Shown: positions 40,942 through 61,110, counted from the first letter of the stretch. The stretch: 64,000 nt of DNA from Chloroflexota bacterium (GCA_034189655.1 JAXHUE010000002.1:32207-96206), one strand, 5' to 3'. The notes: a model not told the origin generated them from the letters alone. A program made the numbers and translations.

Positions 40942-41618
40942 TTCTGCTGATCGTGGGTGCCTACGTCATCGGCTCGATACCTTCGGCATACATCGCCGGC
41001 CGCATACTGAGGGGCATAGATATACGCAAGCACGGCAGCGGGACCGTGAGCGGCACCAACGTGTGGCACTCGGTGTCCCGCTGGGCGATGTTCCCGGTGG
41101 GGATATTCGATATCTTAAAGGGCATGGCGCCGGTGGGCATCGCCTACCTGACGGGGATGACCCTGCTGGGAGACCCGATACTGGCGCAGGGGCTGGTGGG
41201 CCTGGCCGCCATCGCTGGCCACTCGTGGTCGGTCTTCATAGGCTTCAGTGGCGGGCGGGGCATCGCCACCATGATGGGCGTCCTCTTCGTCATCGCCCCG
41301 TGGGAGCTGCTGGTATTCATTGTGCTGTGGGTGCTCTGCATACTCCTCTTCAGGAACTCGCCGCTTGGCGCCATCATCGCCATCGCGTCTCTCCCTGTCG
41401 CCAGTTGGGCCATCGGGGAGCCCGTTGTGCTCACCTACATCCTCATTGCGGTGCTGTTCCTCATGATGGCGAAGAGGATAATGGCCAACCCCGGGGACCT
41501 CGTCACCGACTGGAAGCGGGTGGTGGTATACCGCCTGCTCCTCGACAGGGACATCCCCGATCGCACTGCCTGGATATATCGCGACCACGCCGACAACGAT
41601 AAGAACGCAGAGAAATGA
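40926..41618 (+). CDS. plsY: Glycerol-3-phosphate acyltransferase PlsY
   Basis: IGSIPSAYIAGR...GSGTVSGTNV...ILKG motifs and 5-6 TM helices. Confidence 0.85.
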   Translation: MWWQVVLLIVGAYVIGSIPSAYIAGRILRGIDIRKHGSGTVSGTNVWHSVSRWAMFPVGIFDILKGMAPVGIAYLTGMTLLGDPILAQGLVGLAAIAGHSWSVFIGFSGGRGIATMMGVLFVIAPWELLVFIVLWVLCILLFRNSPLGAIIAIASLPVASWAIGEPVVLTYILIAVLFLMMAKRIMANPGDLVTDWKRVVVYRLLLDRDIPDRTAWIYRDHADNDKNAEK

Positions 41619-43207: not shown

Positions 43208-44422
43208 GTGGCAGAACAGGTGCTATCAGATGTCAAAGTGCTGGACGTCACCCAGCACATCGCTGGCCCCTACTGCACCAAGCTGCTCGCTGACTATGGG
43301 GCGGAGGTGATCAAGGTGGAGAGGCCCGGTCAGGGAGACCCGGCGCGCCGGCTGGGCCCTTTCTACGGCGATGAGCCTCACCCTGAGAAGAGCGGGCTGT
43401 TCGCCTATCTCAACACCAACAAGAAGGGCATAACACTGAACTTGGAGAGCGAGTGGGGCAAGAGGCAGTTCAAAGAGTTGGTAAAAGATGTCGATATCCT
43501 GGTAGAGAATTTCCCTCCCCGCGTGATGCCGGGTCTGGGCCTGGACTACAGCGTCCTGGAGCAGATAAATCCCAGGCTGGTCATGACCTCTATCAGCGAC
43601 TTCGGCCAGAGCGGTCCCTACCGGGACTACAAGGCATCGGAGATAATCATATACGGCATGGGCGGTGCCATGTTCTGCAACGGCCTGCCCGAGGAGGCGC
43701 CGCTCAAGAAAGGGCTCACGGTCACCCTGTTCCAGGGTGGGGTCATGGCGGTGGTGGCCACTATGATGGCGTTCCTCCTCGCCAGGGAGAGTGGCAGCGG
43801 CCAGCACGTCGATGTCTCCCTCTACGAGACCCAGATGGGCACCATAGACCGCCGCATGAGCCAGCTCATCGTGTACCAGTACAACAAGGCGGTGACCTAT
43901 CGTGCTGACCCATCGGTGAGGAGGATGTTCCCCTTCGGCATATACCCCTGCGACGACGGCCACTTCGAGCTGGCGGCGGTGGGCAACCTGTGGCCCGCCG
44001 TGGGCAGGATGATGGACATGCCGGAGCTCATCGAGGACCCGCGGTTCTCCAACATCATAGCCCAGATGACGCCGGGGCACCGCGATCAGTTCGACGAGAT
44101 ATGGTACCCCTGGATAATAGAGCGCACCAAGAAGGAGATCGTCACCAAGGGTCAGGAGGGCGGAGCCCTCTGCGGCCCGCTGGCCACCATGGAGGAGGTG
44201 GTGAACGACCCTCACTTCAACGCCCGTAACTACTTCCGCGAGATAGAGCACCCCGTGATCGGGAAGGTCACCTACCCCGGCCCACCCATTAACAGCGGCT
44301 CGCTGCCCTGGGAGATCAGGAGCGCCGCCCCACTCCTAGGCCAGTACAACGAAGAGGTCTATGGCCGGCTGGGCTACTCCAGGGAGGACCTGGTCGCCTT
44401 AAAGGGCCAGGGGCTCATCTAG
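43208..44422 (+). CDS. Family III CoA-transferase (CaiB/BaiF), subunit 1 of a tandem pair
   Basis: 404 aa. N-terminal VLDVTQHIAGPYCTKLLADYGAEVIKVE and conserved Asp region typical of CoA_transf_3. Confidence 0.9.
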   Translation: MAEQVLSDVKVLDVTQHIAGPYCTKLLADYGAEVIKVERPGQGDPARRLGPFYGDEPHPEKSGLFAYLNTNKKGITLNLESEWGKRQFKELVKDVDILVENFPPRVMPGLGLDYSVLEQINPRLVMTSISDFGQSGPYRDYKASEIIIYGMGGAMFCNGLPEEAPLKKGLTVTLFQGGVMAVVATMMAFLLARESGSGQHVDVSLYETQMGTIDRRMSQLIVYQYNKAVTYRADPSVRRMFPFGIYPCDDGHFELAAVGNLWPAVGRMMDMPELIEDPRFSNIIAQMTPGHRDQFDEIWYPWIIERTKKEIVTKGQEGGALCGPLATMEEVVNDPHFNARNYFREIEHPVIGKVTYPGPPINSGSLPWEIRSAAPLLGQYNEEVYGRLGYSREDLVALKGQGLI

Positions 44423-44437
44423 GTAAGGAGGAAGGAA

Positions 44438-45742
44438 ATGGCTAAACTACCGCTGGAAGGCGTGAGGGTAGTGGAGGTCTGCCCCATATGGGCGGGCCCG
44501 TTCGCCTGCATGCTTTTAGCCGACTGGGGGGCCGAGGTCATCCGCGTGGAGTCCAGGTACCACTTCCCGGTGTATACCCGCGGCGTGCTCGCCCGTCCCC
44601 CGATACAGCTCGCAGAGCAGACACCGTCCGGCTATGCCGCCTACTGCCTCGAGGGGTACGACCCTCAAAAGGCGTTGAACCAGTTCGTGCTCTTCAATGC
44701 CCACGCCCGCAACAAGCTGGGGATGACCGTTGACTTGAGGCGGCCCGAGGGCAAGGACATATTCAAGAGGCTGGTCAAGGTGAGTGACATAGTCATAGAG
44801 AGCCAGTCCCCGCGGGTGATGGAGGAGCTGGAGCTCACCTACGACGCGCTCAAGGAGGTGAACCCCAGTCTCATCATGGTCTCGCTGCCCGCCTTCGGGC
44901 AGACCGGGCCCTACAAGTACTACCGGGCGCTGGGGGCCCACCAGGAGGGGTTCGTGGGCCATACCTACCTGCGGGGGTATGCCGACCGCGACCTCAGCAA
45001 CAACGTCACCCTGTACCAGACCGACGAGACCGGCGGGGCCACCTGCGCCTTCGCCGCCCTCATGGCCCTGCACAAGAGGCGGCGCACCGGCGAGGGCATG
45101 TACGTGGACATGAGCCAGTCCGAGGCCACCATCTCCATCCTGGCACAGGCGGTGATGGACTACACCATGAACGGCCGCGTCACGGAGCGGATGGGCAACC
45201 GCGACTACCACGGGGCCATCCAGGGCTGCTACCGCTGCTGGGGCCGGGACGACTGGGTCTGCATCACCATAAACAGCGAAGAGGAGTGGGATGGCTTCGT
45301 GCGCGCCCTGGGCGAGCCCCAGTGGGCCGCGGACGATAAGTTCTCCGACCACGTGCTGCGCCTGAAGAACCACGACGAGCTCGACCGCCACATCGAGGCG
45401 TGGACCCGCCAGCACGAAAAGTACGAGGTGATGCACCTGCTCCAGGCGGAGGGTGTGCCCGCGGGACCGGTGCTGGACGAGCGGGATGCCTACACCGACC
45501 CCCACATGAGGGAGCGGGGTTTCTTCCAGGAGCTCACCCAGGCCGACTGCGGCACCCACCTCTACCCGGGGCTGCCCTGGCGCATGAACAAGACCCCCAA
45601 CGAGGTCAAGAGGCCCCCGGTGCGCTTCGGGGAGCACAACGAGTACGTGTACAAGCAGGTCATCGGGGTGTCTGACGAAGAGTACCAGTTCCTGGAGAAG
45701 GAGGGCCACATCGGCACACACTACATCCCGGAGATGTTCTAG
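44438..45742 (+). CDS. Family III CoA-transferase (CaiB/BaiF), subunit 2 of a tandem pair
   Basis: 434 aa. VVEVCPIWAGPFACMLLADWGAEVIRVE. 15-nt spacer with RBS AAGGAGGAAGG after the previous gene. Confidence 0.9.
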   Translation: MAKLPLEGVRVVEVCPIWAGPFACMLLADWGAEVIRVESRYHFPVYTRGVLARPPIQLAEQTPSGYAAYCLEGYDPQKALNQFVLFNAHARNKLGMTVDLRRPEGKDIFKRLVKVSDIVIESQSPRVMEELELTYDALKEVNPSLIMVSLPAFGQTGPYKYYRALGAHQEGFVGHTYLRGYADRDLSNNVTLYQTDETGGATCAFAALMALHKRRRTGEGMYVDMSQSEATISILAQAVMDYTMNGRVTERMGNRDYHGAIQGCYRCWGRDDWVCITINSEEEWDGFVRALGEPQWAADDKFSDHVLRLKNHDELDRHIEAWTRQHEKYEVMHLLQAEGVPAGPVLDERDAYTDPHMRERGFFQELTQADCGTHLYPGLPWRMNKTPNEVKRPPVRFGEHNEYVYKQVIGVSDEEYQFLEKEGHIGTHYIPEMF

Positions 45743-45769
45743 CACCTCTCCAGGGACGGGTTGATAGCG

Positions 45770-45810
45770 AGGCCGCCATCGGTGCACAGGCTACCTGCCG
45801 ATGGCGGCCT
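45770..45810. terminator. Bidirectional terminator hairpin (13-bp perfect stem) between the CoA-transferase pair and the nitroreductase
   Basis: AGGCCGCCATCGG-15 nt loop-CCGATGGCGGCCT, followed by TTCC. Confidence 0.6.
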
Positions 45811-45841
45811 TTCCATGCCTGCCTGGGGCTTTAAGCCCTCT

Positions 45842-46510
45842 CTAGTCGAAGCCGTACCAGGTGGTGAACGCCTTCACGGGCTCGCGCGCGCTCACCAGCT
45901 TGTTCGCCGGGAAGTCCCAGTCGGGATAGCCGATGGCGATGGAGATGGTGAGCAGCTTGGAGCGGGGTATGCCGGTGTGCCTTCGCACCACGTCGGGGTA
46001 CATGACGCCCTGGGCGGCGATGCAGGTGCCCAGGCCGTAGCTCATCGCGACCAGGCATATGGTCTGGGTGAAACAGCCGATATCGAACTGGGTGCGCGCC
46101 ATGCCCACCGAGCTATCGGCGGAGATGATGAGCGCCGCCGGGGCATCGAAGAAGCGGAAGCCGCGCTGCGTCCACTCCGCACGCTTCTCTTTGTCCTCGC
46201 GGGAGATCCCCATGAGCCCGAAGAGCTGGATGGCCAGGTCTACCTGGCGCTGGCGGTAGACCCCTTCTAAAGGGGGAAGGGGGACGTCGGTATCGGGCAT
46301 GGTGCCCTGGGCTATCGCGGCCACGTTGTCCCGCTTGATGGCCTCCAGCACCTCGCCGGCGATGACCGCCACCTCCCAGGGCTGCGAGTTGAGCGCCGAG
46401 GGGGAGCGCGTGGAGATGTCCAGTATCTCCTGTAGCACCTCTCTGGGCACCGGGTCCGGCTTGAAGGCCCTCACGCTTATTCGCCCCTTTATCGCCTCTA
46501 TGACGTCCAT
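45842..46510 (-). CDS. Nitroreductase-family flavoprotein
   Basis: 222 aa. RISVRAF...SALNSQPW nitroreductase signature. Confidence 0.85.
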   Translation of the reverse strand: MDVIEAIKGRISVRAFKPDPVPREVLQEILDISTRSPSALNSQPWEVAVIAGEVLEAIKRDNVAAIAQGTMPDTDVPLPPLEGVYRQRQVDLAIQLFGLMGISREDKEKRAEWTQRGFRFFDAPAALIISADSSVGMARTQFDIGCFTQTICLVAMSYGLGTCIAAQGVMYPDVVRRHTGIPRSKLLTISIAIGYPDWDFPANKLVSAREPVKAFTTWYGFD

Positions 46511-46671
46511 GGCAGCACCTTTCCGAGCCCTTCATCGTCGGGCAAAAGATGTGCCCATGGTATCATCTCCGGGGAGGGCACGTCAACGCGGTGGTGGGGC
46601 GTGGGGGGGTGCTGGACAGTGCCCGGCCCGTGGCCTTATAGTGTCATCGATGCCAGACAAGGAGGGAGAGG

Positions 46672-47505
46672 ATGATCAGTGTTGCTGATGGGGTGTACGT
46701 GGAGACCTCGTTCCCCGGCGCCAACGTGGGCTGTGTAGTCACCGAGCAGGGGGTGGTAGTCATCGATACCCCCATGCTCCCTGAAGAGGCCGACACACTG
46801 CGCCGTGAGCTTGGGCGGCTGACCCAGAGGGAGGTCGCATACGTGGTCTACACCCACCAGCACTTCGACCACGTCATGGGCGCAGCCTACCTCACGCGGC
46901 GCGCCATCGCCTGCAGTGCCGCGGTGAGCGGCATTGCCCGCCTCAGGACCGGCCTTGAGAGCGAGCTCTCGCTCTTCTCGCCAGACCTCTATCGCGAGAG
47001 GAAGGAGATGTTCGATGGCCTGGACATCGTTCTCCCCCAGATAACATTCGACACCGAGCTGGGCATGCACATGGGCGATGCCGACCTCGCGCTGTCCTTC
47101 GTCGGCGGTCACTCCTCGGCCTCCATCATCATCCACGTGCCCCAGGCGCGGGTGCTGTTCGCCGGCGACAACGTGGTGACCGGGCAGCTCCCGGTTACCG
47201 CCAACGGCAGGTTCGGCCCGTGGATAGCGCTGCTTGAGCGCATCGAGGGGATGGAGCTGGACGTCATCGTCCCGGGACATGGTGAGGTGTGTGGAAAAGA
47301 CGGGGTGAGTGCCATACGCCGCTACTTCGAGGCGATGCGCGACCGGGTGCGGGAGATGGCTGGCGCCGGGGCGAGCAGGGAAGACGTGGCGCAGGGGATA
47401 GACCTGCGCGATTGCCTGCCTGTCCCCGTGAGCGAGGAGGCGACTGCGCAGGCCGCCTTCGACGCCGCTCGCATGTACGACCAGATGGCCAAGGGACTGC
47501 TGTAG
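46672..47505 (+). CDS. MBL-fold metallo-hydrolase
   Basis: YTHQHFDH (HxHxDH) motif. RBS AAGGAGGGAGAGG. Confidence 0.85.
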   Translation: MISVADGVYVETSFPGANVGCVVTEQGVVVIDTPMLPEEADTLRRELGRLTQREVAYVVYTHQHFDHVMGAAYLTRRAIACSAAVSGIARLRTGLESELSLFSPDLYRERKEMFDGLDIVLPQITFDTELGMHMGDADLALSFVGGHSSASIIIHVPQARVLFAGDNVVTGQLPVTANGRFGPWIALLERIEGMELDVIVPGHGEVCGKDGVSAIRRYFEAMRDRVREMAGAGASREDVAQGIDLRDCLPVPVSEEATAQAAFDAARMYDQMAKGLL

Positions 47506-47621
47506 GGTGCCCCCTGCTCTTCGTCCAGCCTGCGGCGGGTATTGACGTGGGTGGTGGCAGGGGATAAGATTAGCTACAGTATGCTCGAACGTTGCCCGCA
47601 GCAATTACGTACGTGCCCGCG

Positions 47622-50600
47622 ATGAGGTACTATCTTGGCATTGACGTCGGCTCGGTCGGCGCCAAGCTGGCCCTGGTCGACGAGGGATACTCCATAGTGA
47701 GGCTCGACGGCGAGAGGATAACCTCCAGCCCCACCGCTGCCGTCGCCTCGCTTATCTCCAGGCTGGGCCGCGATGTCGACCTCGGTGCAGTCGAGGCCGC
47801 CGGCTGCTCCGGCTCCGGGAGGGGAGTGATACCCGCGGACATGGGCTGGGCGGGGTACAGCAGCTCGCTCGCCGTCGCCTCCGGCCTCCTCCACCTCCAT
47901 CCCCAGGCCAGGACCGTCATCCAGATAGGCGGGCAGAGCTCCCTGGTGATAACGCTGGAGGACGGGCTCAAGAAGCCGTGGAAGGTGGCCTCGAACCCCC
48001 TCTGTGCCGCCGGCACCGGCAGGTTCCTGGAGCAGCAGGCCTATCGCCTGGACATCAGCATGGAGGACTTCTCCCGCCTGGCACAGGAGTACAAGGGCCA
48101 GGCGCCGCGGATAGCGGCCCGCTGCAGCGTGTTCGCCAAGACCGACCTCATCCATCTCCAGCAGAAGGGTGTGCCACTGGGGGCCATGCTCTGTGGCCTG
48201 TGCGACAGCATCGCCCGCGGCGTGGCCTCCTTGACCAGGGGCCCCCTGGAGGAGCCGATATATTTCGTAGGTGGGGTCGCCGCCAACGGCGCCATCGTGC
48301 AGGCCCTGGAGGAGGTGCTCTCGGCGAGGGGCGGCCACCGGGTGCAGGTGACCGTTCCCCGGGACTGCCGCCACGTAGAGGCCCTGGGCGCCGCCCTGCT
48401 GGCGCGGGGCTCGGGGAGGCGCTCCACCGTGGCCGCACTGCCCAGGTTGAGCGCCGGGCAGCGCTACTGGGAGCTGCCCCCGCTTGAGAGGCAGGACGGC
48501 CGGGAGGAGTGGCACCGGCCCGATCTATCGCCGCCGTTGGAGGGGTACCTGGGCGTCGATGTCGGCTCCACCAGCACTAAGGCCGTGGTCCTGGACCGCT
48601 CTGGGGGCGAGGTGCTGGCCAAGTGCTACCTCATGACGCAGGGGCGGCCCGTCGATGTCGTCAAGGAGGTGTGCCGCAACCTGCTCCGCGATGTGGGTGA
48701 GGGGGCACACATACTGGGGGTGGGCGTCACCGGCTCGGGCAGGTACCTGGTGGGCAGCTTCATCGGCGCCGACGTCATCAGGAACGAGATCACGGCACAG
48801 ACCAGGGCCGCCGCAGAGATCGACCCCGATGCCGATATCATCGAGATCGGCGGCCAGGACTCCAAGCTGGTCATCAAGAGGAACGGCGTCGTCGTCGACT
48901 ACCAGATGAACAAGGCGTGTGCCGCCGGCACCGGCAGCTTCATCGACGAGCTCGCCGAGCAGCTCGGCGTGTCGGTGAAGAACGGCGACTTCGCCCGGCT
49001 GGCCTTCGATGCCCCCTACACCATAGACCTGGGGTCGCGGTGCGCCGCCTTCATGGGACAGGCCGTGGCCGCGGCGCGGCAGGAGGGGGTCTCTATAGAG
49101 GTGATAGCGGCCAGCCTGGCCAACTCCATCGCCTCGAACTACCTCTCCAAGGTGGTGGGGATGAGGAGGCTGGGGGAGAGGGTGATACTCACCGGGGCGG
49201 TGTTCTATAACGACGCCGTGGTTTCCGCATTCACCCACGCGCTCGAGGGCAGGGAGACCGTCGTGCCCCGGCACAAGGAGGTGAGCGGTGCCATCGGTGC
49301 CGCCCTCCTCGCCAGGGAGGAGATGGTGGGGGGCGGCTCCCGGTTCAAGGGGTTCCGCGAGATAGTCGAGAGCGACTATACGCTGAAGACGTTTACCTGC
49401 AAGCGGTGCGAGAACAACTGCACCATAAGCCGGATGCAGATGCCCAACGAGCCGGCGACATACTACGGGAGCAGGTGCGACCGCTACGACGCCCGCTTCG
49501 ACCAGAAGAAGGTGGAGACCGCCTTTGACGAGCGGGAGAGGCTGCTCTTCGCCGGCGTGAGGGAGGCGACGGGCACCGGGCCCACCGTGGGCATCCCCAG
49601 GGCGCTCATCATATATGACTACGCCCCGCTCCTCATCGGCTTCTTGAGCGAGCTGGGGGCCAGGCCCGTCCTCTCGGGGCGGACCAACAAGCAGGTCATG
49701 GAGCAGGCCGTCGAGCTCAGCTACCCCGATAGCTGCTTCCCCGTGAAGCTGCTGCACGGGCACGTGGCCACCCTCGAAGAGGTCGACTACATCATGCACC
49801 CCTGCGCCATCAGGCTGGGCAGGAAGGAGGGGGATGAGAACCAGAAGTACTCCTGCCCGCTGGTGCAGGCGGCCCCCTTCATCGTGCGCCAGGCATTTGA
49901 CCTGGGGAAGAGGCTGCTGGTGCCTATCATCGACCTGAGCCGCGGCGACGACGATACCATAGAGAGCCTGGCCGACTGTGCCGTCGAGATGGGGTACCGC
50001 CGCCGAGAGGGCCGCCGGGCGGCCATCGCCGCCATGAGGCGACAGCGGGAGTTCGAGGCCAGCCTGGAAGAGCGGGGCAAGGCCCTCCTGGAGGAGCTCC
50101 ACCGCGGCGACAGGCTGGGCGTGGTGTTCCTGGCCCGCTCCTACATGTCGCAGGACTCAGGGGCCAACCTGGGCATCGCCGAGAAGCTGGCCCAGCTCGG
50201 CGTGGTGCCGATACCGCTCGACTTCCTCCCCCTGGCCCAGGTGGATGTCGGCGAGTACTCCGACCGCCCCTACTGGTACTACGAGGGCAAACACATCGCC
50301 GGTGCCGCCCTGGTCGCCCAGGACCCCCAGCTCTACGGGCTGGTGCTCACCAACTTCGGCTGCGGCCCCAACTCCTTCGTGCTCAACATCGTCGAGGACA
50401 TCATGGGGGGCAAGCCCCTGGGCCAGCTCGAGATAGACGAGGACGCCGCGGAGGCCGGCATCGTCACCCGCCTCGAGGCCTTCGTCGATACCATAAAGGG
50501 ATTTGCCTCCTCGGGCAGGTCGGAGCACGTCAGGGCGTGGGACCAGGGTGCCTATCGCTCGGCGCCCACGCTGGTGAACGCGAAGAAGCTGCTCTTGATA

Positions 50601-51770
50601 CCGCGGATGGCCCCCCACGCCGAGGTGCTGGGCGCGGCCATGGAGGCGTTCGGGGTGAGGGCCATGGTCATGCCCGAGTCCAGCGAGCAGTCCCTGCTCT
50701 ACAGCAACAAGGTCACCTCGGGGAGGGAGTGCCTGCCCTACCGCGTCACCCTGGGCGACTTCATCAGGTTCTTCAACGAGAATGGCGCAGACGGCATAGA
50801 CAGGGATGAGGTCGAGGGCTTCATGGCCAGCGCCTTCGGGCCGTGCCGCTTCGGCAAGTACGCCGTGGAGCAGAGGAGGGCCCTCGCCGAGATGGGGTAC
50901 AGCCTGCCCATGCGCACCACGGTATCCAACAATGCCTATCGGGACCTGGGCCTGGGCCCCGCCTTCGAGCGGCTGGCGTGGCGGGGGATCGTCGCCGTAG
51001 ACTACCTGGAGCGGCTCCTGTGGGGCACACGCCCCTACGAGCGGGTGCCGGGCCGTGCCGACGAGCTCTTCGGCGGCTACATGGCCAGGGTCGTTGGGTG
51101 TGTGCGCCGGCGGGAGGACATGGGCCCTGTCCTTAAGGAGGCCGCCAGGGAGTTCTGCGCGCTCAAGGACCCTGCGCTGCCCAGGAGGCCGCTGGTGGGA
51201 ATAAACGGCGAGATATTCCTGCGCGCCAACAAGTTCAGCAATAACGACCTGGTGGGGGAGTGCGAGCGTGCCGGCCTGGAGGTGGTGGTCTCCTCCATGG
51301 GGGAGTGGCTGCGCTACATCCAGCACCGCAACCTGGAGGACGGCTTACAAGACCACAAGGTGAAGAAGGTGGTCACAAGCTACATCAGGAACCTGATACT
51401 GGAGCGCGACGAGCGCTCTGTAGCCGTACACGTCGCGGGCTCCGTGGACGGCGAGGAGCCGTCCATCCACGAGATACTGTCACAGTGCAGCCGCTACCTC
51501 TCCCCGCGGTGCGGCAGCGAGGCAGTGCTCAGCATAGGGGTCGGCGTCGAGTGGATGGAGAGAGCGGACTTCGCCGGCGTCATATCGGTGATGCCGCACG
51601 GGTGCATGCCTGGCGGCATCGTAGCCGCCATGTCCGAGCGCCTGAGCGCCGCCTACCGCAAGCCGTGGATCACCCTCACCTACGACGGGTTCATGGAGAG
51701 CACCAACCCGGAGAGGGTCCACAACTTCGCTGAGGTGATACGGTTCTGCAGGGACGGGGCCTCTCTCTAG
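47622..51770 (+). CDS. Giant fused protein: two BadF/BadG/BcrA/BcrD (HgdC-like activase) ATPase domains plus C-terminal DUF2229/dehydratase-component-like domain
   Basis: About 1382 aa. Domain 1 YYLGIDVGSVGAKLALV...CAAGTGRF. Domain 2 YLGVDVGSTSTKAVVLD...CAAGTGSF (actin-fold ATPase motifs, duplicated). Cys cluster CKRCENNC...C, then an approximately 780-aa Cys-containing C-terminal region. Promoter TTGACG-17-TAAGAT at about 47538. Confidence 0.85.
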   Translation: MRYYLGIDVGSVGAKLALVDEGYSIVRLDGERITSSPTAAVASLISRLGRDVDLGAVEAAGCSGSGRGVIPADMGWAGYSSSLAVASGLLHLHPQARTVIQIGGQSSLVITLEDGLKKPWKVASNPLCAAGTGRFLEQQAYRLDISMEDFSRLAQEYKGQAPRIAARCSVFAKTDLIHLQQKGVPLGAMLCGLCDSIARGVASLTRGPLEEPIYFVGGVAANGAIVQALEEVLSARGGHRVQVTVPRDCRHVEALGAALLARGSGRRSTVAALPRLSAGQRYWELPPLERQDGREEWHRPDLSPPLEGYLGVDVGSTSTKAVVLDRSGGEVLAKCYLMTQGRPVDVVKEVCRNLLRDVGEGAHILGVGVTGSGRYLVGSFIGADVIRNEITAQTRAAAEIDPDADIIEIGGQDSKLVIKRNGVVVDYQMNKACAAGTGSFIDELAEQLGVSVKNGDFARLAFDAPYTIDLGSRCAAFMGQAVAAARQEGVSIEVIAASLANSIASNYLSKVVGMRRLGERVILTGAVFYNDAVVSAFTHALEGRETVVPRHKEVSGAIGAALLAREEMVGGGSRFKGFREIVESDYTLKTFTCKRCENNCTISRMQMPNEPATYYGSRCDRYDARFDQKKVETAFDERERLLFAGVREATGTGPTVGIPRALIIYDYAPLLIGFLSELGARPVLSGRTNKQVMEQAVELSYPDSCFPVKLLHGHVATLEEVDYIMHPCAIRLGRKEGDENQKYSCPLVQAAPFIVRQAFDLGKRLLVPIIDLSRGDDDTIESLADCAVEMGYRRREGRRAAIAAMRRQREFEASLEERGKALLEELHRGDRLGVVFLARSYMSQDSGANLGIAEKLAQLGVVPIPLDFLPLAQVDVGEYSDRPYWYYEGKHIAGAALVAQDPQLYGLVLTNFGCGPNSFVLNIVEDIMGGKPLGQLEIDEDAAEAGIVTRLEAFVDTIKGFASSGRSEHVRAWDQGAYRSAPTLVNAKKLLLIPRMAPHAEVLGAAMEAFGVRAMVMPESSEQSLLYSNKVTSGRECLPYRVTLGDFIRFFNENGADGIDRDEVEGFMASAFGPCRFGKYAVEQRRALAEMGYSLPMRTTVSNNAYRDLGLGPAFERLAWRGIVAVDYLERLLWGTRPYERVPGRADELFGGYMARVVGCVRRREDMGPVLKEAAREFCALKDPALPRRPLVGINGEIFLRANKFSNNDLVGECERAGLEVVVSSMGEWLRYIQHRNLEDGLQDHKVKKVVTSYIRNLILERDERSVAVHVAGSVDGEEPSIHEILSQCSRYLSPRCGSEAVLSIGVGVEWMERADFAGVISVMPHGCMPGGIVAAMSERLSAAYRKPWITLTYDGFMESTNPERVHNFAEVIRFCRDGASL

Positions 51771-51780
51771 CGCCGCGCGC

Positions 51781-53220
51781 CTACGTGTCCACGCGAACGC
51801 AGTTCCGGCCCTCCTCCTTGGCCCGGTAGAGGGCCTCGTCGGCGGTCTTGATGAGCTCGGTCTCGTTTCCGGTGTCCTCTCTGAGCGTGGACACGCCCAG
51901 GCTCACGGTGACCTGTACGGTGTTGCCTTCGCAGGGGAACGGGTGGCCCTCCACGATCTCGCGCAGCCTCTCGGCGATGTTGACTGCCTCGTCTGAGTCG
52001 GTGCCGGGCAGGAGTATGGCGAACTCCTCGCCGCCGTACCTGGCCACCGTGTCCTCTCTGCGCACGTAGTCCATCAGGACCTTCGACAGCTCCGCGAGCA
52101 CGGCATCTCCTTGAAGGTGACCGTAGGTATCGTTTATCCTCTTGAAGCGGTCGATGTCCACCATGATGCAGGAGAGGGGGCTGCTGTGTCGCCGGGCCCG
52201 CGAGAACTCTTCCTCGATGCGGGCATAGAAGTAGCGGTGGTTGAAGGCCCCGGTGAGCCCGTCGGTGATGGCCGACCTCCGTTCCAGTGCGTAGAGACGG
52301 GCATTGTCCAGGATGGAAGGAGTCCTGCTGACGAAGATCTCAAGCGTACCCTGGTCGTCGCTGCCCAGGGGGCTGCCACCGCCCTTGTCGATGGCGATGA
52401 TGCCGAGCATCCTGCCCTTGGTCTCCAGGGGCACTATCTCCAGGTGGCCATGCTCACCGCCCTGGACATCGGGGTGGAAGGTCTCGTCGAGCCCGATGAC
52501 CCTCACCGACAGGTTATCGGTGTCGACATCGATGTTGCGCCGGCGCAGCTCCTGGAGCAGGCTGGAGACGAAGGCAGAGGCCGCCACCTTTTCGGTGGAG
52601 CCGTGGAGCGTCAGGGTATCGGTGTGGATGACGAGGAGGCCTGCCATCTCGAAATCGAGGACGCGGCCCATGAGGCTGAGTATGGCCTCGGCGAGGGCGT
52701 TGTCGTCCTCGATACGTGCCACCTCGTCGAGGTCGTTGCGTATCGTCGCCTCCTTCAGCTTCTTGTCGAGGAGGGCACTCACCTTGGTCACCACCGCGGT
52801 GTCGTCGCCCCCGGCCTTCACGTCGACGTAGCGGGACTGCGGTGTTCCCGCGTTTCTGTCCAGGAGGGCCCTTATCTTGTCCATCAGCTCGCGGTGGTCG
52901 AAGGGCTTGGTGAGGTAATCGTCGGCGCCGGTCTTGGCCCCCCAGTACTGGTCGCCCTTGCCGGCGAGCGCGGTGAGCATAAGTATCGGTATGTGGGCCG
53001 TGCGCTCGTCGTTCTTTATCAGCCGGCATGCCTGGTAGCCGTCGAGGCCGGGCATTATCACATCCATGATGATGAGGTCTGGCACATGGTCAAAGGTCTG
53101 GTGTACTGCCTGGATGCCGTCGAAGGCGGTGATGACGTCGTAGCCGCTGGCCTCCAGCCTGCGCTGGATCAGCCTCACGTTCACCTCGCTGTCGTCGACG
53201 ACCAGTATCTTATCTGGCAT
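51781..53220 (-). CDS. Response regulator: REC domain, middle (GAF-like) domain and GGDEF diguanylate cyclase domain
   Basis: ILVVDDSEVN...DVIMPGLDG phospho-acceptor region, RYGGEEF active-site motif. 479 aa. Confidence 0.9.
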   Translation of the reverse strand: MPDKILVVDDSEVNVRLIQRRLEASGYDVITAFDGIQAVHQTFDHVPDLIIMDVIMPGLDGYQACRLIKNDERTAHIPILMLTALAGKGDQYWGAKTGADDYLTKPFDHRELMDKIRALLDRNAGTPQSRYVDVKAGGDDTAVVTKVSALLDKKLKEATIRNDLDEVARIEDDNALAEAILSLMGRVLDFEMAGLLVIHTDTLTLHGSTEKVAASAFVSSLLQELRRRNIDVDTDNLSVRVIGLDETFHPDVQGGEHGHLEIVPLETKGRMLGIIAIDKGGGSPLGSDDQGTLEIFVSRTPSILDNARLYALERRSAITDGLTGAFNHRYFYARIEEEFSRARRHSSPLSCIMVDIDRFKRINDTYGHLQGDAVLAELSKVLMDYVRREDTVARYGGEEFAILLPGTDSDEAVNIAERLREIVEGHPFPCEGNTVQVTVSLGVSTLREDTGNETELIKTADEALYRAKEEGRNCVRVDT

Positions 53221-53500: not shown

Positions 53501-56500
53501 ATGAAGAGAGGGGATGTGAGCAAGCAGGACCAGGGAGTTGAGGGCAGGAAGAGGGAGGCAAAGCGGGAGGAGGAGGTCCCGGAAGAGGGGCTTCTGGAGC
53601 GGGTTGAGAGCAGTGCCGAGGAGCTCGAGCGCTCGGAAGAGCGATACCGGGAACTTGTAGAGAACATAAACGACGGCTATCTGGTGGTGAGGGGGCGAAA
53701 GGTCGTTTTCGCCAACAGGCGGTGCGCCGACCTCCTGGGATACCCGGTGAGGCAGATCGTAGGGAAGAACTTCGCAGACCTCGTAGCCGAGGAGTCGCGT
53801 GAGGGGGCGGCAGAACTCTACAAGAGGAGCATGAGCGGGGAGCGACTGTCAGAGCGCCGTGAGGCCTTATTACGGCGAAAAGACGGTACAAAAGTACCGG
53901 TCGAAATGACCCTAAAGGACATCACCTATGATGGCAGGCCCGCTGTCTCTGCCATGTTCTGTGATATCACGGAGAGAAAGGGAGTGGAGCGTGAGCTGTG
54001 GCGGAGGACGTTTGAGCTCGGCGAGCGAGTCAAGGAGCTGAACTGCCTCTACAGCCTCTCCAATCTGGTGCAGCGGCGGGATATAGCGCTCGCTGAAGTA
54101 TTTCAGGGCGCGGTCGAGCTCGTCCCCCCGACATTGCAGTACCCTGATGTGGCGTGTGCCCGGCTGCTCATCGAGGGCCAGGAGTACAGGACGGGCAACT
54201 TCGTCGATACCGAATGGAGGATAAGCTGCGATGTCACTGTGCATGGCGAAGTCATAGGGAAACTGGACGTCTGTTACGCAGAAGAGGTACAGAAGAGCTA
54301 CGGGGGCGTATTCCTTCCAGAGGAGAGGGCACTGCTCCATGCCGTCTGCGGGCGGCTGGGTGAGACCATAGAGAGACGGCGGGCGGAGGGGGAGATTAGG
54401 GCCTCGAAGGAGAAGTACCGCCACCTGCTCGAGGAGATACACGATGGCTACCTGGTGGTACAGGGGGGAAGGGTGGTCTTCGCCAACACGCGCCTGGGGG
54501 AGATACTGGGCTACGGCCCTGAGGCGCTGGGGCGTCCCGTCAATGAGTTCATGCCAGAGTATCTACTGGGCCGGGCGACCGAGCTACGGGAGAGGGTGGT
54601 AAGCGGCGAGGACATATCAGAGCCCATGGAGACCACGGTGCTCACCAAGGACGGCGCCGAGCTGCCCATAGAGGTCAGTATTAAGACGACAGAGTACGAG
54701 GGGAAGCTGGCCATCGCTGTGCTGGTGAGGGACATCTCCGAGCGCAGGCGCGCCGAGGAGATGCGCAGGCGCGAGGAGGAGAAGTACCGCTACCTGTACG
54801 AGTATCAGCCTGCGGTGAACTTCATTATTGGCAATGATGGGACACTGGTGGACATCAATCAGGCGGGCCTGTCCACGTTTGGCTATACGAAGGATGAGCT
54901 CGTGGGCAGGGGTGTCCTCGACCATGTCGTCCCCGAGGAAAGGGAGCGCGTGGCACAGCAGATGGCCAGGGCATTCCAGGGTGAACACACGCCGGGGCTG
55001 GACGTGGATATCTACGCCAGTGACGGCTCGGTCCACACCATGTGGTTCTCACCGGGCCACGTGATCCCGGCGGATGGGGCGCAGCAGGCCATCATGCTCG
55101 CCACCGGTGTCGACGTCACCGAGCGTAAAATGGCGGAGGAGGAGCGCAGGCGCGCGGAGGAGAGGTACCGCCAGCTCCTGGAGGACATAGACGACGGCTA
55201 CTTCGTGGTCCAGGACGGAAAGATAGTCTTTGCCAACACCAGGTGCACCGAGATCCTGGGCTACGGGCCGGAGGCCATTGGGGAGTCTGTGGCCACCTTC
55301 GTGCCGCCGGGACAGGAGCATCACATAGCCGCCTTCGGGGAGGCCTTCTCCGGAGAGGGTGAGGTGGCGCTGCACGACGAGATGTCGGTGCTCACCAAGG
55401 ATGGCAGCGAGGTCCCGGTGGAGATACACGCCAGGAGGGCGCTGTACATGGGTCGGCCCGCCCTCACCGTCGTCATCAGGGACATCTCGGAGCGCGCGCG
55501 CGCGGAGCGGGAGCTCAAGGCATCGGAGCAGAGGTACAAGGCGCTCCTGGAGGACATAAACGACGGTTACTTCGTGGTCCAGGACGGCGTGATAGTGTTC
55601 GGCAACGGGCGGCTGGCCGAGATGTTCGGATATTCGCTCGATGAGGTGCTGGGCAGCCGGCTCGTCGACATTGCGCTGGACAGCGCAAAGGATATGGTGG
55701 CGCTCATGATGTTCGCCTTCGAGCAGGGAGGGGCCGTCCCGGAGCGCGTGGAGATTACCGGGACCGATCCCAGGGGGGGCGGCGATATCACCATAGAGAT
55801 AAGGATGAGCGTCATCGACTACCTGGGACGGCCGGCCATAAACGGCATCATCAGGGACATTACCGACCGCAAGCGCGTTGAGATGGCGCTTCAGGCGGAG
55901 AAGGCCTACTCCCAGTCGCTGGTGCACAGCCTGCCCGATATGCTGCTCACCATAGACCCTGAGGGCAAGATAAGCTATGCCAACGATGTGATGGTGGTCT
56001 TCACTGGCGTAGAGCTGGAGCAGCTCGTGGGGAGGCCCCTGGGGCAGGTACTGCAGGAGATAAATATCCTGGACGCCCGGACGGCCACCCTCGTTACCAG
56101 GCGCATGAAGAAACGGTTGAAGACAGGCCTGCCGGCGCGGGGCGTAGAGCTGGAGATGAGAAATGCCAGGGGTGAGTGGGTGAAAGGCCTGTACTCGACC
56201 TCTGTGATAAAGTCCCCCAGCGGCGAGATCCTGGGGCAGGTGGTGGTCATCAGTGACATCACCGACCGCGTGAAGGCAGAAGAGGAGCTCAAGCGGTCGG
56301 AGGAGAAGTACCGCAGGCTGGTGGAGGACATAAACGACGGCTACTTCGTGCTCCGCGATACCACCATCCTCTTTGCCAACGAGAGGATGGCGGAGATGAT
56401 GGGCTACGGCCTCGATGAGATCGTCGGGGAGGAGTTCCTCAGGTTCCTCGCACCAGAGGCGATAGAAGTGCCCACGCAGGTACACCAGAGGAGCATGGCC

Positions 56501-59443
56501 GGCGATGCCGTAGCCGGGCGCTACGAGACCGTGGTCGTCCGCAAGGACGGGTCCAGGATGGAGATAGACTTCAGCTTGAAAGACATTACCTTTGAAGGCA
56601 GGCCGGCGGTCTCCATCGTGGCCCGGGACATCACAGAGCGCAAGCGTGCGGAGAAGGAGCTCAAGGCATCCGAGGAGAAGTATAGGGAGCTAGTAGAGAA
56701 CATCAACGATGCCTATGCCGTGGTGCGGCGCGAGAACCTGGTGTACGTGAACAAGCGCTGTGAGGACATATTCGGCTATACGGCTGGCGAGATGGTGGGC
56801 CGGAGCTTCTTCGAGATGCTGGCGCCAGAGGTGGTAGAGCAGAACCTAAAGATACTGGCGGCGAGCCTCGACGGTGGCGACCTGCCCGACCACTACGAGA
56901 CCACTGCCATAACGAAGAGCGGCCAGAGGGTAGAGATAGACGTGAGCATACACCCTATCACGTACGAGGGGAGGCCTGCCTTCTCGGTGATGGCCCGGGA
57001 TGTGAGCGACCGCAAGCGGGCCGAGGATGAGCTCAAGCAGTCGGAGGACAAGTTCCGGCACCTGGTGAACGATATGCTCGACGGCTATGTCGTGTTGCAG
57101 GATGGCACCATCAGGTTCGTCAATGCGGCGCTGGCACAGATGAGTGGCTACTCGAGCGAGGAGCTGGTGGGCCGGAGATACGACGACCTGCTTGCCGTCG
57201 ATACCTCCCCGCTGGCCAAGGACATACGCCGCAGGGTTGCCGAGGGTGTGGAGGTCATGGAGCGGTTCCGGGGCGAGATCATAAGGGAGGACGGCACCGT
57301 GCTCCCCGTGGAGGCCGGTATCAAGGGCGTAGAGTATGAAGGACGTACCGCGGTGTCGGTCGTGGTGAGGGACATCACGGAGCGCAAGCGGGCAGAGGCC
57401 GAGATAGAGCGCCGCAACCGGGAGCTGGCCGTCTTGAACGAGGTGGCCCAGGTGGTGAGCCAGTCACTGGACATAGAGAAGATACTGAGCGACACCATGG
57501 ACCTGGTGATGGACTTCATGGAGACGGAGGCGGGCTGGATAGCGCTGGTGGACAGGGACAGCAACCGCTTTCTGCCGCTGGTGAAGAGGGGGGTGCCGCC
57601 GGAGATCCTCGCCATCATGCCAGACATCACCCCCGATATGGGGCTGGCCAGCCACGCCATCAGGACGGGCCAGCCGGTGGCACTCAACGACATTCGCCAG
57701 AATAGCATAGATGAGCTCGCTAAGCCGGCGCGTCCTCTCATGGGAAAGGTAGAGTTCAAGGCGCTGGCGCACGTGCCCATAGACTCAAAGGGAGATATAA
57801 TTGCCGTCATGACACTGGGCAGCCGCACCAAGCCGTCGTTCAGTGAAGGGGAGCTGGGCCTGCTCGGCTCCATCTGCCATGAGATCGGCGTCGCCATAGA
57901 GAATGCCCGCCTCTATGACGAGATAAGGGCGAAGGCCCAGGAGCTGGAGAAGGCCAACCGGCACAAGTCTGAGTTCATGGCCAGCATGTCCCACGAGCTG
58001 CGCACGCCGTTGAACTCCATCATCGGCTTCTCCGAGCTCATGCTCGATGGCATAACCGGAGACATAAACGATGAGCAGCAGCAGTGCCTGGAGGACATCT
58101 TGACCAGCGGTAAACAGCTCCTCATCCTCATCAACGGTGTCCTCGATATCTCGAAGATAGAGGCCGGCAAGCTGGAGGTCATGCCGGAGGTCTTCGACAT
58201 CGGGGAAGTGTTCGATGAAGCGCGGAGGACGATGTCGCCACTGGTGGAGGAGAAGGTGCAGACCCTCACCATGCACATCGAAGAGGGCATGCCCCCGATG
58301 TACGCCGATAAGGGGAAGATAAAGCAGGTGCTTTTGAACCTGCTCAGCAACGCCGTCCGCTACACCAATGACGGAGGCTCCATCGCGGCCGAGGCCAGGA
58401 GGGAGGGTGACCTCTGCCGCATATCGGTCGCCGATACCGGGATAGGCATCAGGGAAAAGGACCTGGAGAACGTCTTCCAGGCCTTCACGCAAGTAGGGGA
58501 ATCGCCGCTGAAGAAGGAGGGAGGTACCGGGCTGGGGCTTGCCATCGCCAAGCAGTTCGTAGAGATAAACGGCGGCATGATATGGGTCGAGAGCGAGTAC
58601 GGCAAGGGGAGCACCTTCATCTTTACCGTGCCCATCTATCGGGCGGATATGAAGCACAGTGAAGCGAAGAGGGAGGAGATGGTGCCCACCGCTGCCGAGG
58701 GTGGCGAGAGGTGCATCATGGTGGTGGACGACGACCGCGGGGCCAGGTCGCTCATGAGGCGCTGGCTGGAGGCAGAGGGGTATAGCGTGTGCGAGGTGTC
58801 GCAGGGCGCGGAAGCTGTGGAGACGGCCAAGAGAATTCGGCCCGCGGTGGTCACGCTGGATATAATGATGCCCGGCGAGGATGGGTGGACTGTGCTGCGA
58901 AGCCTAAAGACCACCAATGAGACGCAGGATATACCGGTAGTCATCGCATCCATGGTGGAGAACAGGGAGCTGGGCTTCGCGCTGGGGGCGGTGGACTATT
59001 TCGTGAAACCGGTGGAGAAGGAGCGCTTCCTTAAGAGGCTGACTGAGCTGGGCATAGGGAAGAGAGAGCGCGTGCTGGTGGTCGATGACGAGCCCAGAGA
59101 CGTACGCCTGACATCTGCCATCCTGGAATCGGAGGGGATGGAGGTGCTCAAGGCCTACGGGGGAAAGGATGGCCTGAAGCTTGCCAGGGAGAGACAGCCC
59201 AGCCTGATAGTGCTGGACCTCCTCATGCCCGACATGGACGGCTTCGAGGTGGTGCGGCACTTGCGGGAGGACGAGAGCACACAGGACATCCCCATAGCCA
59301 TCGTGACCATGAAGGAGCTCTCCGCCGAGGAAGAGGCAGAGCTTGCGAGCCAGGTGCAGTCCGTGATGCAAAAGGCTTCCTTCGATAGGAATGCCTTCAT
59401 CGCTGAGATAAGACGTATCGAGGGGCCACCGAGAGGGGGATAG
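53501..59443 (+). CDS. Hybrid sensor histidine kinase: about 10 tandem PAS domains, GAF, HisKA, HATPase_c and two C-terminal receiver domains
   Basis: 1980 aa. Repeated PAS linker motif ERKRAEEELKxSEEKYRxLVExINDGY. HisKA H-box SHELRTPLNSIIGFSEL. G-box GTGLGLAI. Two REC domains (VVDDD...D...K). Confidence 0.9.
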   Translation: MKRGDVSKQDQGVEGRKREAKREEEVPEEGLLERVESSAEELERSEERYRELVENINDGYLVVRGRKVVFANRRCADLLGYPVRQIVGKNFADLVAEESREGAAELYKRSMSGERLSERREALLRRKDGTKVPVEMTLKDITYDGRPAVSAMFCDITERKGVERELWRRTFELGERVKELNCLYSLSNLVQRRDIALAEVFQGAVELVPPTLQYPDVACARLLIEGQEYRTGNFVDTEWRISCDVTVHGEVIGKLDVCYAEEVQKSYGGVFLPEERALLHAVCGRLGETIERRRAEGEIRASKEKYRHLLEEIHDGYLVVQGGRVVFANTRLGEILGYGPEALGRPVNEFMPEYLLGRATELRERVVSGEDISEPMETTVLTKDGAELPIEVSIKTTEYEGKLAIAVLVRDISERRRAEEMRRREEEKYRYLYEYQPAVNFIIGNDGTLVDINQAGLSTFGYTKDELVGRGVLDHVVPEERERVAQQMARAFQGEHTPGLDVDIYASDGSVHTMWFSPGHVIPADGAQQAIMLATGVDVTERKMAEEERRRAEERYRQLLEDIDDGYFVVQDGKIVFANTRCTEILGYGPEAIGESVATFVPPGQEHHIAAFGEAFSGEGEVALHDEMSVLTKDGSEVPVEIHARRALYMGRPALTVVIRDISERARAERELKASEQRYKALLEDINDGYFVVQDGVIVFGNGRLAEMFGYSLDEVLGSRLVDIALDSAKDMVALMMFAFEQGGAVPERVEITGTDPRGGGDITIEIRMSVIDYLGRPAINGIIRDITDRKRVEMALQAEKAYSQSLVHSLPDMLLTIDPEGKISYANDVMVVFTGVELEQLVGRPLGQVLQEINILDARTATLVTRRMKKRLKTGLPARGVELEMRNARGEWVKGLYSTSVIKSPSGEILGQVVVISDITDRVKAEEELKRSEEKYRRLVEDINDGYFVLRDTTILFANERMAEMMGYGLDEIVGEEFLRFLAPEAIEVPTQVHQRSMAGDAVAGRYETVVVRKDGSRMEIDFSLKDITFEGRPAVSIVARDITERKRAEKELKASEEKYRELVENINDAYAVVRRENLVYVNKRCEDIFGYTAGEMVGRSFFEMLAPEVVEQNLKILAASLDGGDLPDHYETTAITKSGQRVEIDVSIHPITYEGRPAFSVMARDVSDRKRAEDELKQSEDKFRHLVNDMLDGYVVLQDGTIRFVNAALAQMSGYSSEELVGRRYDDLLAVDTSPLAKDIRRRVAEGVEVMERFRGEIIREDGTVLPVEAGIKGVEYEGRTAVSVVVRDITERKRAEAEIERRNRELAVLNEVAQVVSQSLDIEKILSDTMDLVMDFMETEAGWIALVDRDSNRFLPLVKRGVPPEILAIMPDITPDMGLASHAIRTGQPVALNDIRQNSIDELAKPARPLMGKVEFKALAHVPIDSKGDIIAVMTLGSRTKPSFSEGELGLLGSICHEIGVAIENARLYDEIRAKAQELEKANRHKSEFMASMSHELRTPLNSIIGFSELMLDGITGDINDEQQQCLEDILTSGKQLLILINGVLDISKIEAGKLEVMPEVFDIGEVFDEARRTMSPLVEEKVQTLTMHIEEGMPPMYADKGKIKQVLLNLLSNAVRYTNDGGSIAAEARREGDLCRISVADTGIGIREKDLENVFQAFTQVGESPLKKEGGTGLGLAIAKQFVEINGGMIWVESEYGKGSTFIFTVPIYRADMKHSEAKREEMVPTAAEGGERCIMVVDDDRGARSLMRRWLEAEGYSVCEVSQGAEAVETAKRIRPAVVTLDIMMPGEDGWTVLRSLKTTNETQDIPVVIASMVENRELGFALGAVDYFVKPVEKERFLKRLTELGIGKRERVLVVDDEPRDVRLTSAILESEGMEVLKAYGGKDGLKLARERQPSLIVLDLLMPDMDGFEVVRHLREDESTQDIPIAIVTMKELSAEEEAELASQVQSVMQKASFDRNAFIAEIRRIEGPPRGG
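53630..57420 (+). repeat. Array of about 9-10 diverged tandem direct repeats (about 375-390 nt each) encoding the PAS modules
   Basis: Recurrent DNA blocks such as GAGGAGAAGTACCGC...CTGGAGGACATAAACGACGGCTACTTCGTG at 55.15, 55.53, 56.29, 56.67 and 57.05 kb. Confidence 0.6.
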
Positions 59444-61099: not shown

Positions 61100-61110
61100 G
61101 ACGACCTCCT

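Follow-up and report, generated by a model that had tools for sequence, protein, structure and literature searches.

Among the closest described relatives of the gene treated here are plsA and plsR. Plasmalogens are formed in E. coli carrying plsA-plsR of C. perfringens (CPE1194-1195) or the single-gene plsA of E. faecalis (EF1327), L. cremoris or B. longum subsp. suis (PMC12838417), and the encoded proteins have been described as Act1-Act2-Red1-Red2 members of the benzoyl-CoA reductase/2-hydroxyacyl-CoA dehydratase (BCR/HAD) family (PMC12838417; also PMC9702350, PMC8788747). Ger, a "modified PlsA" from T. maritima (Tmari_0479 / AGL49404) and D. alkenivorans (SHJ90043), gives 1-O-alkyl glycerol ethers, anaerobically only, and all alkyl-ether producers share, as a conserved core, the string BBD, i.e., PF01869 twice and then PF09989 (PMC13159169). 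Ger homologues have been listed in Chloroflexi among other phyla (PMC13159169), and a 2026 preprint names Chloroflexota BBD proteins as Ger homologues (10.64898/2026.06.23.733905). We have analysed a 64,000-nt stretch of DNA (hereafter the window; GCA_034189655.1, JAXHUE010000002.1:32207-96206) from a Dehalococcoidia (Chloroflexota) bacterium, in which one large gene encodes a 1382-aa protein (Table 1). An initial annotation, made from the sequence alone, had seen in it a fused double activase with a dehydratase-like C-terminal part, a candidate self-contained, ATP-driven radical enzyme of a biochemically uncharacterised kind. The comparisons below place the protein, with good support, in the PlsA/PlsR-Ger family, and suggest with moderate confidence that it converts ester lipids into ether lipids.

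Affiliation with PlsA, PlsR, and Ger

The C. perfringens plsA-plsR locus (L012, 6694-10892) was recovered from metagenome contigs by means of a published cloning primer, while the E. faecalis plsA cloning primer ATGGTTATGAGAGCAGGGAT had no match in genome contigs. In BLASTP, residues 1-958 of the window protein aligned with residues 1-972 of C. perfringens PlsA (26% identity, E 3e-96) and residues 991-1335 with PlsR (19% identity, E 2e-7), the PlsR match following the PlsA part collinearly; overall identity to PlsAR was 24%. A family set of 90 was made up of the window protein, PlsA+PlsR, and 88 cluster representatives sharing ≤50% identity, and in it 14 cysteines were invariant, one of them in 89/90: C128, C168, C433, C474, C593, C596, C600, C619, C705, C745, C914, C1037, C1075, and C1328. 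The four from C593 to C619 and the last six are among those common to PlsA/PlsR. The BBD core is also there, PF01869 being matched twice (E 1.2e-70) and PF09989 once. We consider membership in the PlsA/PlsR-Ger family well supported because of this collinearity and of the 14 invariant cysteines. The architecture is not new; the protein is a divergent addition to a known family, whose Chloroflexota homologues had already been pointed out by others. To call such fusions biochemically uncharacterised is outdated in that PlsA/PlsR and Ger have been characterised genetically, and holds in that no purified-enzyme study of any family member was found in the literature searched.

This affiliation is hidden by the available models. 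Neither NCBIfam r20 nor Pfam has a model for PlsA, PlsR or Ger; against NCBIfam r20 the validated PlsA is only an "acyl-CoA dehydratase activase" and PlsR matches nothing relevant. For this reason the genes are still given that name, which invites readings centred on coenzyme A (CoA), and the gap may be propagating mis-assignments. In one metagenome study, for example, a Ruminococcus BBD gene with an adjacent HGD-D-like gene was taken, purely by inference, for an aromatic acyl-CoA reductase (PMC11362221); the arrangement looks like plsA-plsR.

Reality and Distribution of the Fused Gene

The open reading frame (ORF) is uninterrupted on the plus strand and could start at TTG 47592, GTG 47613 or ATG 47622. 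The last of these gives the N-terminus MRYYLGIDVGS, which agrees with the orthologue consensus MxYSLGxDIGS, and is preferred for that reason, leaving the start, coordinates and length of the initial annotation unchanged. A promoter-like sequence in the gap upstream (Table 1) would fit a promoter of its own, as a match to a consensus and not as functional evidence, the promoter rules of Chloroflexota not being established.

With E≤1e-10 as the limit, more than 7800 database proteins are homologous. The top 120 of these extend over the full length (1328-1409 aa, in nearly all cases 1372-1409) at 65-74% identity and carry the names of Dehalococcoidia or Chloroflexota metagenome-assembled genomes (MAGs). 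A scan with the family alignment, taking one genome per species, found relatives in 290 genomes, and the best 80 of these were all Dehalococcoidia/Chloroflexota MAGs with the same collinear gene (62-72% identity over the C-terminal 814 aa). Such strong conservation across Dehalococcoidia, at 62-74% identity in the 80 best genome hits and with no conserved operon partner (see below), is as expected of a self-sufficient housekeeping-type enzyme. In one Dehalococcoidales MAG the large protein is matched a second time, over part of its length, 5 kb beyond the orthologue on the downstream side (L042 in Table 1); this could be an activator standing alone or another member of the family.

The high GC content of the window (65%), with its many long spurious ORFs on the opposite strand, could raise the suspicion of a spurious long ORF or of a mis-assembled activator/dehydratase fusion, but the comparative data refute this and leave an artefact practically no probability. 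Besides the >7800 proteins and the 80 species-level genomes, the gene is intact in an independently assembled ENA scaffold with 99% DNA identity to the window, from which it differs, for the most part synonymously, by 20 nt (13 in the third position of a codon) and 5 aa. Across the junction of the two halves (aa 551-650, 49.3-49.6 kb), where the initial annotation had placed a possible chimera, there is no dip in conservation (mean identity 0.57-0.69), and the fusion is real. The same ENA scaffold has two junctions with ca. 100 extra bases between 55-bp overlapping ends, probably unmerged scaffold joins of that assembly and not biology.

Domain Organization

The two N-terminal ATPase domains (Act1 and Act2) resemble HgdC and HadI and also match MbdQ/MbdP (9gai) and DCCP-R (7yyl); each has one copy of GIDVGS/GVDVGS and one of CAAGTG. 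C128/C168 of Act1 and C433/C474 of Act2 align with Cys127/Cys166 of HgdC, which we take, from the published HgdC structure, to be the ligands of a [4Fe-4S] cluster between two protomers. With both cysteine pairs aligned in this way, the fused ATPases can pair within the chain as a pseudo-dimer that shares a single cluster. The two domains are not equivalent. The phosphate-2 motif of Act2 is the canonical GGQD, in 90/90 of the family set, and that of Act1 is a degenerate GGQSS in the Dehalococcoidia clade, an Asp standing at this position in only 37/90 sequences. Judged from these motifs, Act1 may have degenerated into a half without catalysis, leaving the protein with perhaps only one catalytic ATP site. 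C194, also in Act1, is Cys in 76/90 sequences and Phe in C. perfringens.

Between Act2 and the C-terminal half lies a motif of four cysteines, C593-x2-C596-x3-C600-x18-C619, a putative metal or Fe-S site. It is kept in 120/120 orthologues, in C. perfringens PlsA, and in 89-90 of the 90 family sequences; in the model this region forms short beta-hairpins of low confidence (pLDDT 55-64). Of the Pfam families proposed in the initial annotation, PF01869 (twice) and DUF2229 (PF09989, aa 655-868, E 9.6e-51) were found; for HGD-D (PF06050) there was no more than a non-significant stretch of 50 residues (E 0.2). Even with the threshold relaxed to E≤10, Pfam matches nothing in the C-terminal 400 residues.

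The C-terminal half was modelled and used for a fold search. Matches with ca. 240-265 aligned residues each were obtained to BzdN (8s02_B, score 13.5), DCCP (7yyl_C, 13.3), HadC (3o3m_B, 13.2), MbdN (9g87_B, 12.2), BzdO (8s02_A, 11.2), HadB (3o3m_A, 11.1), and MbdO (9g87_A, 10.1), at 11-12% sequence identity to the dehydratase subunits. Generic flavodoxin-like hits covered ca. 100-120 residues, and nothing but BCR/HAD catalytic subunits aligned over the greater length. Red2 modelled alone (403 residues, pLDDT 86.5) gave the same kind of matches (HadC 12.7, DCCP 12.4, MbdN 12.4, BzdN 12.1, HadB 10.8). From these models, the C-terminal half appears to consist of two modules like BCR/HAD catalytic subunits. 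For Red2 the fold rests on its own model, and for Red1 on DUF2229, the homology to PlsA and the equivalent cysteine motifs. That Red1 and Red2 are related to each other rests on these motifs (C-[FLY]-P and G-C-x-P), on the homology to PlsR, and on the fold of Red2 only; a direct profile comparison (hhalign, 120 orthologues) reached no significance (probability 0.7%, E 0.086), its alignment being too shallow (Neff 1.8). Two further cysteines of Red2, C1214 and C1297, are present in 120/120 Dehalococcoidia orthologues and replaced by hydrophobic residues elsewhere, a pattern that could point to a disulfide or metal site peculiar to the clade.

The structural part of the initial annotation, namely two complete activase domains with doubled motifs, a CxxCxxxC cluster after the second of them, cysteines (found here to be conserved) in the C-terminal ca. 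780 aa, and likeness of this region to dehydratase/reductase components, has thus been borne out, and with it the idea of a single-chain BCR/HAD-type machine. It could be argued that the protein is an activase only, which would inject electrons at the expense of ATP into a dehydratase or reductase encoded elsewhere, its C-terminal half serving for docking or regulation. The source names at NCBI and JGI ("acyl-CoA dehydratase activase") say as much, and the curated models that match are all of activator type (NCBIfam having none for PlsA/PlsR/Ger): the sole NCBIfam match is the generic TIGR00241, twice. However, the C-terminal 800 aa appear to make up two complete HadB/C-like modules with three invariant cysteines each, an HGD-D-type partner gene was adjacent in 0/85 orthologous loci, and E. 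coli forms the product when given a single homologous gene (PMC12838417, PMC13159169). We regard an activase-only role as very improbable.

Proposed Mechanism

By analogy with HgdC and BCR, Act1 and Act2 would form the intramolecular pseudo-dimer, holding one [4Fe-4S] cluster on C128/C168 plus C433/C474, and would be loaded with one electron from reduced ferredoxin or flavodoxin. Hydrolysis of ATP would bring about a conformational change and a lower potential; as the only domain with an intact GGQD, Act2 would probably do most of it. The electron would then pass, possibly by way of the invariant four-Cys site (C593/596/600/619), to predicted clusters on the three cysteines of each of the HadB/HadC-like modules Red1 and Red2, at whose site an ester carbonyl would be converted into a ketyl radical. 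Going by the homology to the validated enzymes, the enzyme would most likely act on membrane glycerophospholipids, at their sn-1 acyl ester. Dehydration would then give a vinyl ether (1-alk-1'-enyl, PlsA-type), possibly followed by further reduction to a 1-O-alkyl ether (Ger-type), as in the ester-to-vinyl-ether/alkyl-ether scheme summarized in PMC8788747. According to the Ger authors, formation of alkyl (Ger) and of alkenyl (PlsA) ethers cannot be told apart by sequence (PMC11868695). The gene would act alone, with no dedicated neighbour, which fits the sufficiency of single plsA and ger genes in E. coli.

Lipid or Soluble Substrate

An ester-to-ether lipid function is, on homology, the interpretation that we hold to be moderately probable. 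Several facts weigh against it. Proven isofunctional enzymes share 48-55% identity in PlsA and 41-42% in PlsR (PMC12838417), a range that the window protein does not reach (26% in the PlsA part, 19% in the PlsR part, 24% overall). The cluster representatives from Dehalococcoidia have 58% and 47% identity with its C-terminal half, the next clusters outside (Aerophobetes, Planctomycetota, Fibrobacterota, and a deltaproteobacterial MAG) only 35-40%, i.e., the clade is isolated, and C. perfringens PlsAR is matched by every cluster representative at 24-28%. In a survey of the Black Sea, Chloroflexota are missing from the main phyla given as bearing Ger (PMC11868695), and the literature yielded no lipid data for Dehalococcoidia carrying the gene. 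The mechanistic steps that go beyond domain homology are all ones that we infer, with no purified-enzyme study behind them in the literature searched. Finally, genes of acyl-CoA metabolism recur beside the gene in sub-clades: acyl-CoA dehydrogenase plus a short-chain dehydrogenase/reductase (SDR), thiolase plus DUF35, enoyl-CoA hydratase, and pairs of CoA-transferases. The low identity to PlsAR lowers, as far as sequence can tell, our confidence in a same function, not in family membership.

The same ketyl-radical machinery could act on a soluble thioester or carbonyl, as a self-activating 2-hydroxyacyl-CoA dehydratase, an enoyl- or aryl-CoA reductase or similar, with a role in the catabolism of fatty and organic acids that dominates these genomes. 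This was essentially the initial reading, which also pointed to the position of the gene between two pairs of family III CoA-transferases. Apart from the 24-26% identity of the clade to validated PlsAR, it can invoke the fold, nearest to that of enzymes of CoA esters (BzdN/O, HadB/C, MbdN/O), the interpretation given to the Ruminococcus BBD protein (inference only, PMC11362221), and a number of individual loci: a CoA-transferase pair on the same strand 36 nt upstream (L005), thiolase plus DUF35 genes abutting the gene (L007/L020), an acyl-CoA dehydrogenase plus SDR pair divergently upstream in 8/85 loci, and the gene within a beta-oxidation-like cluster (L087).

We clustered all the ORFs of 85 orthologous loci and found no conserved neighbour family among them. 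The commonest upstream neighbour, a divergent acyl-CoA dehydrogenase, occurs in 7/62 loci and the commonest downstream, a PadR regulator, in 10/81; the other recurrent ones are IspH, a RecF-like ATPase, a pyridoxal phosphate (PLP) enzyme, nitroreductase, metallo-beta-lactamase (MBL), methylmalonyl-CoA mutase, and a surface protein. CoA-transferases are not enriched, making up 1.5% of the ORFs within two genes (4/264) versus 1.3% of those farther away (7/541; odds ratio 1.17, p 0.76). CoA_transf_3 genes were found within 5 ORFs in 4/85 loci, and within 2 ORFs in only 2 of those four. Moreover, the adjacent pairs of different genomes are different paralogues, 38-49% identical versus 72-74% for the large protein, that is, not orthologous. 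With no enrichment and such divergent pairs, the proximity of CoA-transferases reflects the background of paralogue-rich genomes and not a conserved functional link. Eight orthologue contexts viewed singly differed from each other, among them a tight co-directional CoA-transferase pair (P0007), a divergent one (P0002), thiolase plus DUF35 (P0004), divergent acyl-CoA dehydrogenases (P0009, P0099), and a cluster of glycosyltransferases and methyltransferases (P0019, P0050).

In the window itself the two CoA-transferase pairs do flank the gene as described, but neither is adjacent: a nitroreductase and an MBL gene intervene upstream, and the downstream pair is on the opposite strand and 8 kb away (Table 1). 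The nitroreductase, on the minus strand, breaks any operon that would join the upstream pair to the large gene. The context that had been called unusually informative is, for all these reasons, not so. All experimentally tested proteins of the fused architecture, furthermore, act on glycerolipid esters (PMC12838417, PMC13159169), and a soluble thioester or other carbonyl compound as the substrate is to our mind possible but doubtful. The missing lipid genes beside the window gene are uninformative, since the validated plsAR of C. perfringens has none either, its neighbours being a radical SAM gene upstream and a two-component system downstream.

There is a further variant in which the Dehalococcoidia clade has a self-contained ATP-driven ketyl-radical reductase/dehydratase for a non-lipid carbonyl, for example an acyl-CoA or an ester of sedimentary organic matter. 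It is a possibility because homology alone ties the clade to lipids and because acyl-CoA genes recur beside several sub-clades; we judge it unlikely. If true, the fused BBD architecture would have its first function outside lipids. The conversion of a glycerolipid ester to an ether remains the function that we favour.

Other Features of the Neighbourhood

A PlsY gene (glycerol-3-phosphate acyltransferase, PF02660, E 8e-39), followed by an alpha/beta hydrolase gene or preceded by it, was considered as a partner of the large gene and rejected, being 6 kb upstream and near the large gene in only one other locus (L056); its nearness is probably a coincidence. Two plus-strand ORFs (45761-46270 and 46299-46688) were likewise rejected as genes, having no family match and overlapping the minus-strand nitroreductase. 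Nitroreductase is found at +1 in 6 loci and an MBL-fold gene at +2 in 8, in different sub-clades, and in the window both are upstream, a different arrangement. Downstream of the gene, between it and the second CoA-transferase pair, there is a convergent PleD-like diguanylate cyclase and a hybrid sensor kinase of 1980 aa, the latter followed by two small receiver genes; this kinase ORF was left uncalled by the gene caller in the ENA scaffold. The family III CoA-transferases come in adjacent pairs of two subtypes (ca. 30% identity within a pair, 38-49% for the same subtype across genomes), as if heteromeric transferases of the CaiB/BaiF type had undergone a large paralogous expansion in these Dehalococcoidia.

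Table 1. Coordinates of the large gene, its parts and neighbours in the window, and of related features in other loci (locus handle before the position).
Feature	Position	Strand	Remarks
Fused PlsA+PlsR/Ger-type BCR/HAD-family gene	47622..51770	+	1382 codons plus stop; ORF, Pfam, orthologues, collinearity
Promoter-like TTGACG-17-TAAGAT	47542..47570	+	Consensus match only; in the 116-nt gap 5' of the gene
Act1, ASKHA/HgdC-like ATPase, aa 1-265	47622..48416	+	phmmer: HadI (4eht) 2e-22, HgdC (1hux) 2.2e-22
Act1 phosphate-2 motif GGQSS, aa 103-107	47928-47942		
C194	48201-48203		
Act2, HgdC-like ATPase, aa 309-568	48546..49325	+	Pfam best stretch 310-564; phmmer: HadI 6e-26, HgdC 2e-24
Act2 phosphate-2 motif GGQD, aa 410-414	48849-48863		
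Four-Cys motif, putative metal/Fe-S site	49398..49478	+	Between Act2 and Red1
Red1, catalytic module 1, aa ~640-975	49539..50546	+	DUF2229; invariant C705, C745, C914
Red2, catalytic module 2, aa ~985-1382	50574..51767	+	PlsR-equivalent; family-invariant C1037, C1075, C1328
C1214	51261-51263		In Red2
C1297	51510-51512		In Red2
PlsY	40926-41618	+	
CoA_transf_3 pair, upstream	43208-45742	+	Not adjacent to the gene
Nitroreductase (PF00881, E 2.4e-27)	45842-46510	-	Between upstream pair and gene
MBL gene	46672-47505		Between upstream pair and gene
PleD-like receiver-GAF-GGDEF diguanylate cyclase	51781-53220	-	
Hybrid sensor kinase	53501-59443	+	Nine PAS, GAF, HisKA/HATPase, two receiver domains
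CoA_transf_3 pair, downstream	59870-62397	-	
Nitroreductase/MBL genes of the window	45842-47505		Upstream of the gene
Recurrent nitroreductase/MBL example	L045 4272-5009	-	
Recurrent nitroreductase/MBL example	L070 12943-13719	+	
CoA-transferase pair	L005 300-2733		
CoA-transferase pair	L006 1959-4860		
CoA-transferase pair	L041 4446-7078		
Second partial match to the large protein	L042 17493-18458	+	Dehalococcoidales MAG
ENA scaffold junctions	L001 2036-2135, 20790-20889		Versus window 39750-39804, 58347-58401

Implications

Dehalococcoidia are among the most abundant bacteria of anoxic marine and aquifer sediments, and the bacterial glycerol ethers of sediments are used as biomarkers, their producers being poorly constrained. 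If the lipid assignment is true, these anaerobes would carry a conserved ester-to-ether lipid enzyme and would be candidate sources of sedimentary bacterial alkyl and alkenyl glycerol ethers. In this family, besides, nature has put the BCR/HAD "archerase plus catalytic core" system into one chain, which makes it attractive for a first in vitro or structural study of intramolecular ATP-coupled electron injection. The degenerate ATP site of Act1 next to the intact one of Act2 hints at another stoichiometry than in homodimeric HgdC: were Act1 non-catalytic, the ATP used per electron would differ.

Comparison with Known Systems

The likeness to PlsA/PlsR extends to the order of the parts (Act1, Act2, CxxCxxxC...C, the DUF2229 module, and the second module) and to all 14 cysteines, and the fused single-gene form is that of E. 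faecalis PlsA (PMC12838417). The differences are that Act1 has GGED in C. perfringens and GGQSS here, that PlsR gives a partial Pfam hit to DUF2229 and Red2 none, and that the host is a member of Chloroflexota, a phylum for which we found no plasmalogen data. With Ger, active only anaerobically and compared here by its published description, the protein shares the single polypeptide of ca. 1400 aa with a BBD core (PMC13159169), and its nearest clusters outside Chloroflexota overlap with the reported Ger phyla, i.e., Aerophobota, Planctomycetota, and deltaproteobacteria/Desulfobacterota (PMC11868695, PMC13159169). The published Pfam strings of Ger are BBDHDDH and BBDHDHDH, whereas the small HGD-D and DUF2229 fragments are absent or non-significant here.

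As for the CoA-ester enzymes, HadBC/HadI and HgdAB/HgdC have the same activator fold with two cysteines per ATPase domain bridging a [4Fe-4S] cluster, but in the form of four separate gene products instead of one chain. The window protein also differs from 2-hydroxyacyl-CoA dehydratases in its extra four-Cys motif and its non-significant HGD-D match, and in the 85 loci neither a CoA-transferase nor a dehydrogenase is kept as a partner. Class I benzoyl-CoA reductases (BzdNOPQ, MbdNOPQ, BcrABCD) consist of separate subunits and not of one chain; the NCBIfam equivalogs for BCR score far below their cut-offs (TIGR02259, 116 versus 578 bits; TIGR03192, 98 versus 380; TIGR02261, 97 versus 313), and there are no aromatic-degradation genes in the window or the 85 loci. 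Nevertheless, MbdQ and MbdP match both ATPase domains of the 1382-aa protein, and the activator of these reductases is a heterodimer of two different ATPase subunits, comparable to the non-identical Act1 and Act2. DCCP/DCCP-R (PDB 7yyl), finally, has a separate homodimeric reductase and catalytic protein, whereas here everything is in one polypeptide, with three invariant cysteines in each catalytic module.

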